Source of the DNA: a virus
Length of the DNA stretch: 64,000 nt
Direction: 5' to 3' (one strand)
Virus genome (UHGV): UHGV-1430915
Shown here: positions 17,776-62,232 of the stretch, in pieces
Layout of the letters: each line of letters begins with the position of its first letter
Numbering within the stretch: the stretch's first letter is position 1
Translations under genes and position numbers: made by a program
The notes under the pieces: generated by a model
What the model was told of the DNA's origin: nothing
What the model saw: the letters and a program-made list of their open reading frames with translations, nothing else
Database searches by the model: none

Positions 17776-17878
17776 GGTGCTAGGTGATGGAATCGAACCA
17801 CCTATGTATTCAACGACTACCTCGTCTATTTTCAGGATTAAAAATCCTCGCCCTTGCCAAAGGGCTTACCTAGCGCAA
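17776..17878 (-). ncRNA. tRNA-like element (perfect acceptor and T-arm; Lys-TTT-like anticodon loop; about 30 extra nt before T-arm; no encoded CCA)
   Basis: Acceptor GCTAGGT pairs with ACCTAGC, T-loop GGTTCGATTCC present, but region between anticodon and T arms far exceeds any normal variable arm. Confidence 0.4.
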
Positions 17879-18439: not shown

Positions 18440-18778
18440 TTAACTATTGCCAACAGGCTGTATTTCTGTGGTAAATGGCATAAAAGGTGCTGGTTTTTCA
18501 GCCTCTTCTACTACCACCTCTTCCTCTTCACCAAACATCTCATCATATTCTTCCTGCATTCGGTCTGCCTTATCAAGAACATACTCTGCAATGCTTTGAC
18601 GAATATTTTGTTTGGTTTTCGGGTCCAACATCAGCTCTCTTAAAACTTTGTGAGCTTCTGGAACCATCGCTATAAAAGATTCCTTCATATCAAGAATGTT
18701 CTTCTCTAGCTGAATGGCGTTGGACTCCTCTTTCAGAGGTCTGCCTCTACGGCGACGCTTTTTAGTTGTATCCGCCAT
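18440..18778 (-). CDS. small DNA-binding-like protein (basic AT-hook-like N-terminus KKRRRRGRP, acidic C-terminus)
   Basis: ORF from ATG at 18776-18778 with GGAGGAAAC RBS; own promoter and operator palindrome upstream. Confidence 0.5.
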   Translation of the reverse strand: MADTTKKRRRRGRPLKEESNAIQLEKNILDMKESFIAMVPEAHKVLRELMLDPKTKQNIRQSIAEYVLDKADRMQEEYDEMFGEEEEVVVEEAEKPAPFMPFTTEIQPVGNS

Positions 18779-19641: not shown

Positions 19642-20220
19642 TCAACGTTCGTAGTAAATCTTATTCAACATTACCTCATCGTTTGCAGAAAGGATATCAA
19701 GATATGCATCACCAAATCTGCCTGCAACAACCTCTGCATGATACATCACTTCGTTAACATCGTCAAGAGTGATAACAGGATGACCATATCTTTCTGAATA
19801 TTGTCTCAGTGTGCGATGCAACGAGTCGTCATCATATGCAGACTTTTTAATATCACAAACACGACGAATGGCCTTGATGTCGAAAAAACCTGTGCGATAC
19901 CACCCAAGAAAAAAGTTCCGTGTAGTGTCAACATCTACATCAATACCATTAAGAACCTTATCTACAAGATAGCTGTCATCCTTTGGACTAGCGTCCTTAG
20001 TGCGAATGTAGTTGCCATCTTTTCCAGGTGATAGCTCCTTCTCATCACCAACCTGCATGCCATCATTTGGCGGTGTTAGCCACTTATCAGGATGCTTACG
20101 ATCACGAGCGTTAGAATGATTACGCTGGAAACCTGGCTTCCACTTGAAAGTTTTCTCCATCTGTTCTTCATTCTGATAACGTTTTGCAATCTTTTCGCTG
20201 GCATCTTTGCGTGAACTCAT
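19642..20220 (-). CDS. hypothetical protein
   Basis: 192-aa ORF with AGGAGG RBS. Confidence 0.5.
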   Translation of the reverse strand: MSSRKDASEKIAKRYQNEEQMEKTFKWKPGFQRNHSNARDRKHPDKWLTPPNDGMQVGDEKELSPGKDGNYIRTKDASPKDDSYLVDKVLNGIDVDVDTTRNFFLGWYRTGFFDIKAIRRVCDIKKSAYDDDSLHRTLRQYSERYGHPVITLDDVNEVMYHAEVVAGRFGDAYLDILSANDEVMLNKIYYER

Positions 20221-20344
20221 AGCAGCCTCCTCTTCAAGTTATAGAAAAACTCACTGTATCGCTTTGTAACGAGCTTTTCTATCAAACTGGTGCGATTGCC
20301 TTACTTGGTATAGTTTATATAGCTGTGGAGCGATTTAGGGGCCT

Positions 20345-20590
20345 TCTTGTCAGTTTCCACACATAACTTTATCCGAACTCGCGCGGGAGGCTCTCAACCG
20401 ACTCCTTCCGGCGCTGGCAAGCTTTCGTCGGTGGTCCACATTAGTGCTCGGCCTTTGGCCTGCGCTATCGCTTCGCTCCCACACATGTTAACAGTCCTGC
20501 ATGTATGCACTTCTGTTATTGTGTGCACTATGGAGGCCCGGCATCTCGCCCCCCCGTAGGCGAGTGCCAATGAAGGGCCGACACTACCCA
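20345..20590. repeat. GC-rich noncoding element, copy B
   Basis: Diverged duplicate of element A in same orientation; ORFs through it look spurious. Confidence 0.4.
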
Positions 20591-20723
20591 TAATAAGTAA
20601 TAAATTTAAAACATGGTACTTAGGATCTAGTATATTCTACATAAGTTAAGTATATGTACTTTAGTACCATAAGTACTAGATCTTTTATTTTTATTATTTA
20701 GTTATTTTAGTTATATTCTTTAT

Positions 20724-20806
20724 GTGTCCGTATCACGGACAGTTAGTGTCCGTATTACGGGCAGATGTGTCCGCGTGACGGACAGTAGTGTCCGTATCAC
20801 GGACAG
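20724..20806. repeat. iteron/operator array: four tandem palindromic units GTGTCCGT-ATC-ACGGACAG (period 21-22 bp)
   Basis: Four copies starting at 20724, 20746, 20767, 20788; units 1 and 4 identical; each has 7-bp inverted arms; adjacent AT-rich block with nested inverted repeats at about 20600-20700. Confidence 0.6.
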
Positions 20807-20880
20807 TTACTAACCTCTGTTCCAGAGTGAACATAAAACATACAAATCCTTATAGTACAGATGTTTAAGTTTTTACTGGT

Positions 20881-21231
20881 CTAACCAGTTGTTGACATTC
20901 GAATAACTTCTTCTGGTGGCAAAACTTTGGAAAATGTGCATCTTTTACCTCTCCCTTGTGTGGATATTTCAACCACTCCTGCACATTCTAAAGTTTTAAC
21001 GCACGCTGCTGCTTTTGTTTTCTTTATCCCAACATCTGCTGCAATTTTCCTTGTGCTTGGTGTGAAGCGTGAATTTTCTCCAAGCTTATACCAGTTGTGC
21101 AGGTAGCAGTATACGATCTTGTCATATAAGTCAAGAACAACAACCTCCCCAGTTGTGTCATTCAAAACTTTTGACATAGACAGTATTTCAAGGGGGACTT
21201 TAAGATATAGCAGCTTATCCCCATCTTTCAT
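20881..21231 (-). CDS. putative HTH DNA-binding protein
   Basis: 116-aa ORF ending just before iteron array; helix-turn-helix-like segment TRKIAADVGIKKTKAAACVKTLECAG. Confidence 0.4.
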   Translation of the reverse strand: MKDGDKLLYLKVPLEILSMSKVLNDTTGEVVVLDLYDKIVYCYLHNWYKLGENSRFTPSTRKIAADVGIKKTKAAACVKTLECAGVVEISTQGRGKRCTFSKVLPPEEVIRMSTTG

Positions 21232-21278
21232 ATCTCCTGATTCTCCTTGTGTGGCAATTTTCTTTAAAATAGCAGGGA

Positions 21279-21833
21279 TTACTCCCCGCTGTCAATAGCA
21301 AGACTCATTGCAATACGGTATGCCTCTTCTAATGGTAAGAGTCTCCCCCACACATCCCAACCGACATCAAACTGCCTGCCAAACAACTGCTGTGTGGTTC
21401 CGTGAGCATGACCGAACAGTTGGACTGATCCGTGAGGCTTTCTGTTCCACTTTGCAAACTGGTAATGGCTCATACAGATCAAATTCTTGTTGTGGCGAAG
21501 CTCGTAATAATCTACAACCTCATGACCGAACTCTTTCATAATTCTGACAGTCGTCCTTGTGTCATGGTTACCACGAACAAGAATAATATGTCCGTTCAAC
21601 ATATTTAGAACATCTGGAAGCAATTTGTTGATATTCTTATCATTAGTGCACGCAATATCCCCCAAGTGAAACACAGTGTCTGCAGGTGACACAACAGAGT
21701 TCCACTTGGTGATGATTCCCGCATTCATACTGTCAAGATTGTGATCATACTGAGATCTGTGTTTTTGACATGAGTCGAACTCCATTACCCGCTGGTGGAG
21801 AAAGTGTGTGTCGCTTGTTACAAAGTATTTCAT
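21279..21833 (-). CDS. calcineurin-like metallophosphoesterase (putative RNA 3-prime phosphatase / phosphoesterase)
   Basis: Motifs SDTHF, GDIA, GNHD, GHAH typical of binuclear metallophosphatases; start set at MKYFVTSDTHF. Confidence 0.65.
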   Translation of the reverse strand: MKYFVTSDTHFLHQRVMEFDSCQKHRSQYDHNLDSMNAGIITKWNSVVSPADTVFHLGDIACTNDKNINKLLPDVLNMLNGHIILVRGNHDTRTTVRIMKEFGHEVVDYYELRHNKNLICMSHYQFAKWNRKPHGSVQLFGHAHGTTQQLFGRQFDVGWDVWGRLLPLEEAYRIAMSLAIDSGE

Positions 21834-21840
21834 ACATTCC

Positions 21841-22251
21841 TCATTTAAGTTTAATGCAGTTTTTAAGCTGGCGTTCCATACGATCCACAACCCTGTCTGG
21901 AACATCATGAATGCTTTTATTACCATGGCGGTTTTCAACCACGATCACGGTATAACTATATCCATGACTGATCGCCATGTCAATATATTCTTGCACATAT
22001 TTTTCTTTTGTAAACGTATTACTTACCACGATACGGTCGTAGCCCATACGCATCATATCTTCTACGTTATCTTTGCACCATTTTGCTGCAAGTGTTACTT
22101 TACTTGCATCCCAATTGTAATTGCCGTCATCGTCGTACCAGAACATATCGTTCTCAAAATGTGGATACAGACCTTCTAAAGATAGCGCATTTGCCAGTGT
22201 TGATTTGCCAGACCCTGGTAGACCACGCACGATATATAGCATTTTAGACAT
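21841..22251 (-). CDS. polynucleotide 5-prime kinase (Pnk-like P-loop kinase)
   Basis: Walker A GLPGSGKST; C-terminal region resembles T4 Pnkp kinase domain (HG..SIHDVP..V..RM); start at MSKML with RBS. Confidence 0.65.
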   Translation of the reverse strand: MSKMLYIVRGLPGSGKSTLANALSLEGLYPHFENDMFWYDDDGNYNWDASKVTLAAKWCKDNVEDMMRMGYDRIVVSNTFTKEKYVQEYIDMAISHGYSYTVIVVENRHGNKSIHDVPDRVVDRMERQLKNCIKLK

Positions 22252-22279
22252 AGTAACTCTCCGTTTTAATTTTAATGAT

Positions 22280-22308
22280 AGTATACCTAACTGTTTTGTT
22301 AATTTCAA
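22280..22308 (-). promoter_or_regulatory. sigma70-like promoter (minus strand) TTGAAA-N17-TATACT
   Basis: Upstream of kinase-phosphatase operon, back to back with plus-strand TTGACA at 22312-22317. Confidence 0.45.
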
Positions 22309-22351
22309 GTGTTGACACCAAGTTATTTGTGTGGCAGGATAAAGGGACAAA

Positions 22352-23287
22352 ATGACAAATGAGGAATGTATAATGAAGTATTTTAATGCAGACGACCTAG
22401 TTGACAAAGGTCTTGTAACCAGCAGATATTACCCGGATCTTGGGTTAAAGATCTATAAATATGCCAGAAAAGTATTCTACAACAATTTATGGCATTTGTC
22501 TCCTCGTTTGCTGGAGTGCCGAGGCATTGTTGTCGGTAATGAAGGAAATGTTGTGGCATGGCCCTTCACAAAAGTGTTTAACTTGGGAGAAAATTCCACC
22601 AACCTGCCTGACAATAAACTTGTGACGGCGGTAGAGAAAAAGAACGGATTCCTTGGTGTGGTATCATCTCATAAAGGTGAACTATTGTTCTCAACAACCG
22701 GGTCTCTTGATTCTCCATATTGTAACCTTGCAAAGGAAACAATCCAGGAGCAATGTGGTAATTTAGATCTTATCAAGAGGGTTATGGGCCATGAAAACAT
22801 GACATTCATGTTTGAAATTTGTCACCCTTCAGATCCGCATATTGTTCAGGAAGATCATGGCGCATATTTGATAGGTTGCAGATATAATGATTCTGGAATA
22901 ATGCTACCAGAAGCAGCTTTAGATGGGATTGCCAAATACCTTGGTGCAAAACGTCCTCACACTGTGCGTGAAATTCCGTTCAGCTATGCAAAAGAATTAG
23001 CTGCAGAAACAAGAGGTGAAGGGTATATGATTCGTAAGCCTTACTACCCTTATGATCTGCAGCTGAAGATCAAGTCTCCATACTATTTGGCACGGAAGGC
23101 CGTAATGAGGGGTAAAGCTTGGAAGATTTGGGATGATGATATCTTTAAACGTGTTGACGAAGAGTTTTATGGCATGGTAAACTTCATTCGTAGCAATTAC
23201 ACAGAAGATGTGTGGAACTGCCTCCTGGAGCAAGAACGTCGTGAGATACTTGACTGCTATTTCCACAACGAGGACTATATGCAATGA
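22352..23287 (+). CDS. RNA ligase, Rnl1 (T4 RnlA) family
   Basis: Blocks LECRGI, KVFNLGEN, KKNGFLG, STTGSL align with T4 Rnl1 LECRGI, KFFNLNEN, KEDGSL, KSKGSI; motif I has Asn in place of Asp. Confidence 0.65.
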   Translation: MTNEECIMKYFNADDLVDKGLVTSRYYPDLGLKIYKYARKVFYNNLWHLSPRLLECRGIVVGNEGNVVAWPFTKVFNLGENSTNLPDNKLVTAVEKKNGFLGVVSSHKGELLFSTTGSLDSPYCNLAKETIQEQCGNLDLIKRVMGHENMTFMFEICHPSDPHIVQEDHGAYLIGCRYNDSGIMLPEAALDGIAKYLGAKRPHTVREIPFSYAKELAAETRGEGYMIRKPYYPYDLQLKIKSPYYLARKAVMRGKAWKIWDDDIFKRVDEEFYGMVNFIRSNYTEDVWNCLLEQERREILDCYFHNEDYMQ

Positions 23288-59469: not shown

Positions 59470-61810
59470 AGTTCTTCTCTTTTCTTTTACCGAGTAATTC
59501 GGGTTTTCTGTTCTCTTCGGTTTGAAGGGGTATGGAGATACACCTGAGTGAACAGGGTGAACAACCGAACCTTTAGCTATGGCATTAGCATGGCGAAGCG
59601 GACGGGTGACGAAAGAGGGGCCGGAGGACACCAGTCACTGCCATATAGTATATGGGTGATAACCTGAAGAGTCTGAATAAGTGTTTAAGTACCAGTCAGA
59701 GGAAAAGGTGAATGGTAGCCGAAGGGGGAGGGGGGTTTCTTATATCTTTAATTTGTATACTTTATATACACTTGTAAACCAATTCAATTAGGATCTGTTT
59801 ACCACACAAAGTGGATGGAGACAAATATCACCTATTAAACTTGAATTATTTATAGAAAATACCACAACACTACTTAAGTCTTTGATTTTACACACAAATC
59901 CTACAGATATTCACCCTCCATATTTAACATACTTGTAACATATCCCATACTCTACCTGTCTGATCAATTTACCCAACTACATCCCCATATTTTTCCTGTC
60001 TGTACTACCCCTGCCCCGCCGGGAGTCTCGTCATATCTGGCTTCCCAGCAAATATCACACCCACAAATATCATTGCCTGAAGAGGGTTTCATCCCATAAT
60101 ACATGCCTTACCTGAAGAGGGTTTCATACACCACGTAAATTTTTTAATTGACCTCCCCTGCCCCGCCGGAGAGGTTGGCTTTTCCCACACAGACCTGAAG
60201 AGTCGGCCAGAAATATCTGAATAGGTCCAGTTCTGCCCTGTCATGAGCGGTAGCGACTGGAGTGCTGCCAGGCGGACGGAATGGGAATACTTCTCATTTT
60301 TATAATAATTCTCAAATATCGAGGCAGTGAGGCAAATTAATAGGTCAGGCCGTTCACACAGTGGCACAACATTTGCAATCTATCTTGTGGGAGTGAATGA
60401 GAATACCTATCATTGTGAGAATGGTTATCATTACGGGCAATTTAACATAATACCCATTATGCGCACCACTGGCGATACATACAGGGATTGATAACATGGG
60501 TTACTGTTTACGCACATAACAATTATATTTCTTACTATTTGTGCGGGATATAGTTAGCAACCAATAGATTAGATATTGACCTGCGGACTTCTGACCGTCC
60601 AGACGTCTAAACGCCCACACAATAAGGGTTATACATACATTCCTGAATGTAAACAGGGCCGCAAAAATGCTACCATACCAGTTTGTAAATTTTTCATGCA
60701 GCACTTGACAAAGAGGAGAAAAACTTGTCTGACACTTTTGCCACTTTTGACACAATATGACACAATAACGGCTGTTACTATTCCATATCTCACTGTTTAC
60801 GCATAGACTGTTTACGCCTGAATAGTTTACGCCCAAACTGTTTACACAGAGATGATAAGCCATGCCATTCGTTTGCATGAAAACAATTAACAAGATAACA
60901 ATTAACAAGTTAATAATCTTTCGCTGGCTATGCCAGGTGACTAGGTCACCCCTTCGGGCGTTTATATGACATAATATAAAAGCAGGGCAACTATTAGAAG
61001 ATCTATAGTTGCCTTACTTGTTATGTCATGATTAACTAAATACAAGGCAACTATGATCTGAGTAATAGATTGCAGAAAAACTATCACGGGGGTGATGGTT
61101 ACTGCTTTTATATTATGTCGCGACTCCGTCGCGCCATGCCATTCGTTTGCATAGTTGCCTTATTGTTACAGGTAAAATAATTACATTATTAATTATTTCT
61201 TATCTTTCTCTTAGTCATCTAATGATTCCAGTCAGTATAGTAATGTACAGTAAACATTAGACGACTAAAGATTTCTCTGTTTATGATAACTCATCGTGAT
61301 AATTTCGGGCTGTTTACGAAAAATGTTGACACCTGAGCTGATTTATGTTATGCAGTTTACACGAATAATTATTTTATGCAGGTATTAACTATTCCGTTAT
61401 TCTGTGGTTGGAATAAATACTTTGCAGGCTATAGAATGGCGTGCGTACGTGAATTCTGAGATCTGGCGGCTATAGTTATACTCGATTTTTCGCGTAGAAC
61501 ACGCTTTAGATGCTGTGTAAGTGTATGACTTATAAAGATTTTTAGTTGTTGACAAGATATTGGAGATGTGCATCAGGTTAAAATTTGTGCAATAGCGGCA
61601 TTACGTGCACTTTTGGGAGAGAAAACGGGTAAAAATGGACTTGCTACCACACAATGAAAAATTATGCAATAGTTATTTTCCATGTATATTTGTACAGTAT
61701 GTGGGATTGATGGCTAGTCAATTATTCCACTTGCCAGGTAGGGCCGTTTATGGTAGGAGAAGAGCAGACAAAAAGAAAGGGGCCTAAGCCCCTTGATAAT
61801 TCAGTTAAAA
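59470..61810. repeat. repeat-rich region without convincing ORFs (candidate origin / packaging / regulatory / sRNA locus)
   Basis: Multiple direct and inverted repeat families (see findings); sits between convergent gene blocks. Confidence 0.5.
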
Positions 61811-61812
61811 AA

Positions 61813-62232
61813 TTATAATGATTCGTATATTTCAAAAATCCGATTTGCCAGGTCGTTACGGTAGCTGAATTTTTCCTCACGTTTGATCATAAGATCTTTA
61901 TAGCCGTACTCTTTAAGCACTTCATTAACTTTATGGCGGCATACTTTCATATTATCCTGCGCGTCACCAATAAATCTGTTGCTATGGTGCATGGCTTTAA
62001 TTTCTTCTTCCAGGACCAGGGCAACTATGCGGACCGGATCAAGCTGATAGGCGGTAACATCCATGCGGCATTGTAAACGGCTTTTTACGTCTGCCACCGG
62101 ATATACTGCAACCTCTTCCCCGTCAACATTGACAATAATTAGTTTACCATCGATTTCGAATCCTTTCGCCGCCGGACCGTGACAAAAAGCGTTATCAAAG
62201 CTATATGCCGGATTATTAGATTTAATGTTCAT
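61813..62232 (-). CDS. hypothetical protein
   Basis: 139-aa ORF, last gene of leftward operon. Confidence 0.45.
   Translation of the reverse strand: MNIKSNNPAYSFDNAFCHGPAAKGFEIDGKLIIVNVDGEEVAVYPVADVKSRLQCRMDVTAYQLDPVRIVALVLEEEIKAMHHSNRFIGDAQDNMKVCRHKVNEVLKEYGYKDLMIKREEKFSYRNDLANRIFEIYESL

Follow-up and report, generated by a model that had tools for sequence, protein, structure and literature searches.

A conserved array of palindromic iterons beside an AT-rich block is a candidate replication origin of rV5-like phages

In the replication origin of phage lambda an AT-rich tract adjoins four iterons, each an imperfect inverted repeat of 19 bp; iteron 1 reads TCCCTC-AAAAC-GAGGGA (PMC7466680). 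A second described case is the Vibrio cholerae satellite PLE, whose RepA is a RepA_N-type initiator with the N-terminal domain structure 4RO3; electrophoretic mobility shift assays and deletion analysis demonstrated that it binds semi-palindromic iterons at the PLE origin (PMC7145576). Here we analysed a stretch of 64,000 nucleotides from the virus genome UHGV-1430915, in the following called the window. Four tandem palindromes are located in it between an AT-rich block and the 3' end of a gene coding for a 116-aa winged-helix protein. We propose, with a probability of roughly 0.6, that this array and the AT-rich block make up the iteron-type origin from which the phage replicates, or one of several such origins.

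Judged by nucleotide identity, the window belongs to Vequintavirus, i.e., it stems from an rV5-like E. coli myophage. Over about 1 kb around the array more than 100 Vequintavirus genomes (rV5, FV3, ECP2303, and others), each of about 137 kb, match the window with 97-99% identity, and positions of the rV5 genome are converted to window positions by subtracting 44,427. In the rV5 genome paper the origin could not be defined, and skew analysis gave transcription switches only. The literature was searched for an origin, a transcriptome, or a satellite of Vequintavirus and nothing relevant was found. We found no description of the iterons, the unwinding block, or the origin of rV5-like phages in the searched literature; the name of the protein was already known.

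The repeat finder returned a single 22-nt family with copies starting at 20724, 20746, 20767, and 20788, spaced by 22, 21, and 21 bp and being 100, 82, 77, and 100% identical in this order. Four tandem units with identical first and last copies, as described in an earlier model-made annotation of the bare letters (the sequence-only reading), were confirmed. When the 64 kb were scanned with the 17-bp core TGTCCGTATCACGGACA allowing up to three mismatches, the four array sites and one unrelated site were found, compared with 0.10 chance matches in shuffled sequences. The array starts 71 bp beyond the stop codon of the minus-strand gene of the 116-aa protein, and the sequence-only reading had it abutting the 3' end of a gene for a small helix-turn-helix (HTH)-like protein. 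The iterons given below were delimited by the repeat finder, the core scan, and cross-phage comparison.

20592..20723: AT-rich block, candidate DNA-unwinding element, 132 bp, 81% AT (duplex stability scan)
20725..20741: iteron nearest the AT-rich block, TGTCCGTATCACGGACA
20747..20763: iteron, TGTCCGTATTACGGGCA, with a tolerated R/Y change in one half-site
20768..20784: iteron, TGTCCGCGTGACGGACA
20789..20805: iteron nearest the gene, TGTCCGTATCACGGACA on the plus strand
20811..20880: spacer from stop codon to array, the most variable intergenic stretch (18 of 70 columns vary in six phages)
20881..21231, minus strand: gene of the 116-aa winged-helix protein (rV5 gp075 / ORF79), characterised with PHROG, Pfam, PDB, AlphaFold 2 (AF2), and Foldseek

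Conservation of the repeats in related phages had been named beforehand as a test. In 14 related Vequintavirus loci the four units, their spacing, and the half-sites are kept, except in contigs ending within the array. Over the units and these 14 phages the conserved form of the iteron is TGYCCG-N5-CGGRCA, and in the window the units read TGTCCG-N5-CGGACA. The sequence-only reading had described each unit as an inverted repeat with 7-bp arms around ATC; the palindromy was confirmed, but the arms had to be revised, since the conserved form comprises 6-bp arms and a variable 5-bp centre. All changes in the array among the 14 loci affect either the 5-bp centre or a single, symmetric position of the half-sites (left T/C, right A/G). 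In the alignment of six phages 2 of 48 half-site positions and 4 of 20 positions of the central 5 bp are variable, compared with 25.7% of the positions in the spacer between stop codon and array. The motif is also restricted to this locus: in the complete rV5 genome (137,947 bp) it occurs four times with up to one mismatch, every time in this array.

The AT-rich block adjacent to the array was assessed by a nearest-neighbour scan. At lengths of 40, 60, 100, and 120 bp it is the least stable duplex of the window (z 4.3-5.2), and it is likewise the least stable 40-, 100-, and 120-bp duplex of the entire rV5 genome (z 4.7, 5.6, and 5.75; runner-up about 4). An AT-rich stretch had been placed at about 20600-20700 before; it is present, yet larger than claimed (20592-20723). 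The inverted words quoted for this stretch exist as well, namely the pair of CATGGTACT (20612-20620) and AGTACCAT (20663-20670) and that of GATCTAGTA (20624-20632) and TACTAGATC (20674-20682). The pairs are, however, not nested but interleaved (order a1, b1, a2, b2), so that both cannot form one cruciform. The block contains two GATC sites and, at 20679-20691, a single exact match (GATCTTTTATTTT) to GATCTnTTnTTTT, the 13-mer consensus of E. coli oriC; one match counts as weak evidence. The number of matches with up to one mismatch in the window is not above chance. DnaA-box-like 9-mers (TTATCCACA, up to one mismatch) are found 37 times in the whole window, with 19 expected, and are scattered without a cluster.

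The 116-aa protein matches PHROG 12838, a 'replication initiation protein', with an E-value of 2e-79. Weaker matches were obtained to three further initiator families, phrog_8102, phrog_428 (E 0.002), and phrog_270 (E 0.004), the latter two also being named 'replication initiation protein'. In the Pfam scan DUF6945 reached 28.5 bits (cut-off 28) and HTH_36 24.8 bits (cut-off 25), and neither Phage_rep_O nor RepA_N (PF06970) was matched. The sole significant match among the PDB sequences is 4RO3, covering residues 10-93 (phmmer E 1e-5; profile E 3.8e-6). RefSeq names the protein 'replication initiation protein' via PHROGs, whereas the GenBank submitters chose 'putative transcriptional regulator'. 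Its close relatives (at least 85% identity) are confined to Vequintavirus. Word-indexed protein searches, both single and profile, gave these relatives and one other protein, an exhaustive HMMER search gave a few weak HTH_36 proteins, and a protein-based locus search in IMG/VR yielded no relatives. In the protein encoded at 18440-18778, which had been put forward as a second candidate binder, Pfam and PHROG revealed no DNA-binding signature.

From five close homologues alone AlphaFold produced a model with a predicted local distance difference test score (pLDDT) of only 40. With remote homologues added, the AF2 model used here has a pLDDT of 83.8 and a predicted template modelling score (pTM) of 0.78 and displays a short helix and a beta-hairpin followed by a winged helix, which corresponds to the DnaD-NTD-like fold of the RepA_N / PLE RepA initiators, a winged-helix domain extended by beta structure at its N-terminus. 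In a Foldseek search of the PDB this model matched 4RO3 first (E 2e-6, template modelling (TM) score 0.67) and next the staphylococcal RepA_N N-terminal domains 4PQL, 4PT7, 5KBJ (a Rep-iteron DNA complex), and 4PTA over 107-113 columns, whereas regulators of the CadC, CodY, and ArsR type aligned over 66-88 columns only, with TM scores below 0.45. Among viral models the matches were DUF6945 and 'replication protein/initiator' entries, several of which comprise just 100-136 aa. The protein aligns end to end with initiator N-terminal domains and no further domain follows this N-terminal-type domain. According to the model it would thus be an initiator-type domain, putatively binding iterons, without the C-terminal partner domain.

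We also scanned IMG/VR for exact matches to the DNA motif alone (CTGTCCG-N5-CGGACAC) and obtained 120 loci, nine of them with tandem arrays of 3-7 copies and a period of 20-23 bp (27 bp in one). In L015, L054/L084, and L093 the array is situated within or in the 3' part of an open reading frame (ORF) matching HTH_36 and 'replication initiation O-like' PHROGs; the array-bearing ORF of L094 matches the O-like PHROGs only. By analogy, arrays inside these ORFs have the lambda layout, in which the origin lies within gene O. The O-like genes of these phages share with the window the identical half-sites TGTCCG / CGGACA, the 5-bp centre, and the repetition at 20-23 bp, and their proteins are likewise of the HTH_36 / O-like kind, one being only 133 aa long. 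They differ in that the arrays are located in the 3' part or a linker of the gene and that the proteins are just 15-24% identical to that of the window. Translated in frame, the iteron of these phages encodes the peptide CPxxGQ/H, and a similar repeated peptide is visible in P0013, a remote homologue from the protein search. The TGTCCG/CGGACA iteron is therefore repeatedly paired with initiators of this class, in no fewer than three phage lineages that are unrelated to each other.

A different palindrome was observed in the sister genus Mydovirus. In Klebsiella phage NDO71 (L144, 1945-2130) a 122-aa weak homologue (HTH_36, profile) adjoins three TATTCC-N6-GGAATA palindromes, which are located in a divergent intergenic region together with an AT-rich stretch holding three GATCT motifs. 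This module would fit, if only weakly, with an initiator and its sites changing together.

From these observations we infer the following mechanism. The gene at 20881-21231 would be expressed early from a sigma-70 promoter, and the resulting winged-helix protein would bind each 17-bp palindrome TGYCCG-N5-CGGRCA as a dimer. The half-site centres are 11 bp apart and hence on one face of the helix; as the sites recur every 21-22 bp, i.e., every two helical turns, the four dimers would be placed on the same face. They could then form a nucleoprotein complex similar to the lambda 'O-some'. This complex, assisted by read-through transcription from the gene's own promoter, would melt the 132-bp AT-rich block, and at the opened block the replication proteins that rV5 encodes itself, the gp4-like primase-helicase gp225 and the T7-like polymerase gp223, would assemble.

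The promoter was identified by a consensus scan.

21266..21295, minus strand: sigma-70-like promoter (TTGACA, 18-nt spacer, TATTTT, TG), corresponding to P76 in the rV5 RefSeq record

From the gene to ORF77 the scan detected neither a sigma-70-like promoter nor an intrinsic terminator, phage-specific promoters being outside its reach. With a promoter upstream of the gene and no terminator before the array, transcription of the gene can enter the iterons and the AT-rich block.

Several observations weigh against the assignment as an origin. First, the helicase- or primase-recruiting C-terminal part that is found in lambda O and the RepA_N proteins is absent from the 116-aa protein, so that loading of the replisome would lack an agent. 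Second, no DnaA box (TTATCCACA-like, up to one mismatch) is present in the region 20221-20880, the nearest being inside the gene. Third, only 9 of the 132 columns of the AT-rich block (6.8%) are variable in the six aligned phages. This conservation goes beyond what meltability needs and suggests specific sequence information; the block may hold specific sites, e.g., a phage-type promoter. Fourth, in L015 just 1.5 kb separate the homologous array from a large terminase gene downstream of it. Fifth, a second repeat-rich, non-coding region of 2.6 kb (59.6-62.2 kb) could be the origin or a second one. Finally, T4, T7, and other large virulent phages often start replication from transcripts or by recombination and not from iterons.

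The second region (window 59586-62191, rV5 104013-106618) corresponds to the 'non-coding' box of the rV5 paper. No gene is annotated there in rV5, and the ORFs of the window do not exceed 139 aa. The region is situated at the convergence of two transcription units and holds the second-least-stable DNA of the window. Several sets of repeats are present: GTTTAC(GC) occurs four times at 15-bp spacing (60795-60845) and AGGGCAACTAT in both orientations, a 20-nt sequence is found unchanged at 60859 and 61133, and one of 18 nt is repeated in perfectly inverted form at 60968 and 61102. The region could act as a second origin, as the pac region, or as a terminus.

It is chiefly the conservation of the AT-rich block that leaves room for an array serving transcription alone, as an operator or as a set of upstream activating sites. 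In that case the 116-aa protein would be a repressor or activator of a promoter in the AT-rich block, or a roadblock to read-through, and would play no role in replication. Such a promoter would drive the structured RNA described below, ORF77-74, and the tRNA cluster, the array being located between the regulator gene and the next unit; a block conserved in sequence beyond its composition could hold a promoter invisible to the sigma-70 scan, but on neither strand do the sites overlap or adjoin a sigma-70-like promoter. The GenBank name 'putative transcriptional regulator' would suit this explanation, yet over its whole length the fold is closer to replication initiator N-terminal domains than to regulators. 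In the plasmid-like elements (see below) and in Mydovirus the palindromes are upstream of genes, where Rep-type proteins commonly autoregulate; the motif of the window, in contrast, is absent at the protein's own promoter and elsewhere in the genome, and the same palindrome forms arrays inside O-like initiator coding sequences, where a role as operator is unlikely. Furthermore, four in-phase sites by the least stable DNA of the genome are the architecture of an origin. We therefore regard a purely regulatory array as rather unlikely. Regulation and initiation are compatible, and an operator role could coexist with an origin. The sequence-only reading had offered a lambda-type origin and an operator as alternatives. 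Every computational test favoured the origin, because of the initiator-like protein, the arrays in O-like genes, the position of a unique array by the least stable DNA, and the missing overlap with a sigma-70 promoter; the strict lambda type, however, did not hold on two defining features (see below).

The missing recruiting domain would also be in line with sites that serve another organisation of the DNA (genome pairing or 'handcuffing', a partition-like centromere, or competition with a satellite) instead of the start of replication. The N-terminal domains of RepA_N proteins are said to be able to bridge iteron DNAs, as reported for staphylococcal RepA, and there are plasmid-like elements akin to this phage. 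The iterons of these candidate satellites are different, though, and neither a partition ATPase nor a second array is present. Moreover, the link with the most meltable DNA of the genome would be left unexplained. We consider this explanation very unlikely.

The position of the array in L015 raises the further possibility that the array is the pac site of a headful-packaging phage and the small winged-helix protein its small terminase subunit. N-terminal HTH domains are found in small terminases, and for the circularly permuted rV5 neither a pac site nor a small terminase has been identified. Here the array is located about 4.3 kb upstream of the large terminase gene in the same direction of transcription, and in L015 the homologous gene and array are 1.5 kb upstream of a large terminase; yet spanin genes, the tRNA cluster, and four ORFs lie between the gene of the 116-aa protein and the large terminase gene (about 4.4 kb away). 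The matches in sequence and fold are replication initiators, no terminase family or structure being among those in Pfam, PHROG, and Foldseek, and the candidate satellite plasmids, which would need the pac site of their helper, are without this motif. Three metagenomic contigs end in or at the array, but it is common for an assembly to break off beside repeats and a stretch of 81% AT. Altogether a packaging site is highly improbable.

The contigs in question, L006, L012, and L013 of the Logan metagenome data, come from independent assemblies and stop inside the array of iterons or just behind it. Most likely assembly broke down at the repeats or at the block of 81% AT; physical DNA ends are possible.

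On the minus strand a T4-like RNA-repair pair (AAA_33 kinase and metallophosphoesterase) precedes the gene of the 116-aa protein, which is followed by a 660-bp gap without credible ORFs, then by ORF77 to ORF74, and finally by the tRNA cluster, the spanins, and the large terminase. Together with an Rnl1-type RNA ligase the RNA-repair pair makes up a T4-like RNA repair set (window 21279-23287) that flanks the locus near the tRNA cluster, which suggests a tRNA-repair counter-defence module. At 17776-17874 on the minus strand ARAGORN called a 99-nt tRNA-like gene with a four-base anticodon (atcc); its Rfam tRNA score is 35.5 bits and it is unannotated in the rV5 and FV3 records. GC skew was considered as evidence for the origin and rejected: the cumulative minimum at about 21-22 kb is about 1 kb off and is uninformative because it coincides with the divergent switch of gene orientation at 22.3 kb. 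Eighteen MG0656xx records ('Campylobacter phage' D1, C15, A116, and others) share 97-99% identity with E. coli Vequintavirus in this region. CP057073.1, a 137.6-kb 'E. coli plasmid', has a two-piece match to the region of the RNA block introduced next and appears to be a Vequintavirus genome. The 18 Campylobacter-labelled records and CP057073.1 are probably mislabelled.

Directly downstream of the AT-rich block there is a further conserved element.

20325..20590, minus strand: conserved G+C-rich structured RNA element of about 270 nt, putative member of the origin module

This block is nearly invariant across the genus. A coding role was ruled out: it cannot be coding because of a 1-nt indel that sets the window apart from all its relatives within the sole long ORF and an 18-nt deletion in rV5, and the compensatory pairs argue likewise. 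Four small E. coli 'plasmids' of 13-40 kb contain matches of about 85% to the block. Between the phage and the plasmid versions five compensatory base pairs are found in two helices, two in the 5' hairpin and three in a 6-bp helix, and the plasmid versions have UNCG tetraloops. The 6-bp helix is paired in all eight sequences, with a covariation of 0.55 compared to 0.25 in shuffles and at most 0.12 in slid controls, and a G-U pair among its changes fits only an RNA from the minus strand, i.e., in the sense of the gene. Single-sequence folding gave z-scores of -1.2 for the minus and -2.8 for the plus strand and was not decisive. In Rfam, searched with the whole window at gathering thresholds and with 20150-20950 at E <=10, only tRNAs and noise were found and no family for the RNA block. 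An exact scan for the invariant 25-nt loop GAAAGCTTGCCAGCGCCGNAAGGAG of the RNA yielded one Vequintavirus contig in IMG/VR and no match in the GTDB species genomes. The block is probably an undescribed structured RNA that is associated with iteron regions.

The plasmid-like elements have an arrangement comparable to that of the phage. In NZ_CP020521.1 (L137; 13,689 bp) palindromic iterons of the CGGTAAATATTTACCG type with a 23-bp period are followed by an AT-rich stretch and then by the RNA block. The other plasmids have iterons of their own 150-250 bp upstream of the RNA block. Among the 13-kb E. coli plasmid-like replicons an AT-rich stretch comes after the palindromic iterons in p190, and the RNA block comes after them in all, so that the order of the phage is kept. 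The rV5 iteron motif was not found in the plasmid-like elements. The plasmid codes for homologues of three rV5 proteins, namely gp048 (50% identity), gp056, which is the neck protein (45%), and the tape measure protein (26%), and in addition for a capsid protein and a Rep-like winged-helix protein. L137, L138, L139, L141, and L142 are small circular E. coli 'plasmids' for which the PLSDB typing shows no replicon type; a capsid gene, the homologues of gp048, gp056, and the tape measure protein, palindromic iterons of their own, and the RNA block are present on them. A 49-nt element with three small hairpins, one with a UUCG loop, is common to the non-coding box of the phage (window 60919-60967, rV5 105688-105736) and to the linker region of the Rep-like gene of the plasmid (L137 10886-10934). 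On the basis of the encoded homologues and the RNA block the plasmid-like elements may be a new satellite family of rV5-like phages.

It is conceivable, though we deem it doubtful, that iterons, unwinding block, and RNA form one replication module in which the RNA replaces the C-terminal domain of the initiator, and that the plasmid-like elements are satellites with a copied RNA. If so, the RNA would perform priming or recruitment of the replisome, and satellites of Vequintavirus would use the replisome of their helper via a copied origin-associated RNA.

rV5-like phages are widely isolated and are used in the biocontrol of E. coli O157 and in therapy cocktails, and their origin has never been located. 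With a defined pair of origin and initiator one could directly test the timing of replication, its dependence on the host, and engineering by origin-based amplification or conditional replication. Should the proposed origin prove correct, an iteron origin in the style of lambda and RepA_N, served by an initiator cut down to the DNA-binding domain, would be usable by a large virulent phage whose replisome is of the T7 type. As the same TGTCCG-N5-CGGACA iteron is present in distant phages, it would provide a simple signature for origins in uncultivated phage genomes. The RNA that rV5-like phages have in common with plasmid-like elements carrying tail genes of the rV5 type hints at a family of RNAs, and possibly also at a helper-satellite system, not described so far; the interest of the locus would rise if this link holds.

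Like the origins of iteron plasmids (RK2 oriV, pSC101, P1, F), the locus has iterons that recur about every 22 bp and adjoin an AT-rich block, here the candidate unwinding element. Origins of the RK2 type also have a G+C-rich segment beyond the AT-rich region. The iterons of these plasmids are, however, mostly asymmetric direct repeats bound by Rep monomers, and DnaA boxes are present, whereas here the repeats are palindromes and there is no DnaA box.

With the lambda origin the locus shares four inverted-repeat iterons (17-19 bp) of 6-5-6 geometry. In both, the AT-rich tract is on that side of the iterons towards which the initiator gene is transcribed, the initiator has a winged-helix domain that binds the iterons or, here, would bind them, and transcription through the origin is possible. 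In contrast to lambda, where the origin is situated inside gene O, the array follows the stop codon at a distance of 71 bp. In lambda the C-terminal domain of O recruits P-DnaB, whereas the 116-aa protein is a DNA-binding domain only and does not match Phage_rep_O; furthermore, the present phage, a virulent myophage of 137 kb, encodes a primase-helicase and a polymerase of its own.

RepA_N-type initiators (PLE RepA, 4RO3; pSK41/pTZ2162 RepA, 4PQL, 4PT7, 5KBJ) are the best whole-protein matches in sequence and structure, and their iterons are likewise directly repeated and semi-palindromic, being bound by these initiators as dimers (PMC7145576). These proteins, however, have a host-specific C-terminal domain, which the 116-aa protein does not have, their iterons are usually contained in the rep gene, those of PLE occupying a non-coding region apart from it, and the Pfam family RepA_N is unmatched here, DUF6945 being the only family matched, at threshold. 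Because the origin would be located outside the gene, the C-terminal domain is missing, and neither Phage_rep_O nor RepA_N is matched, strict membership of the lambda and RepA_N/PLE families fails; in function, the proposed origin resembles both the lambda and the RepA_N/PLE origins.

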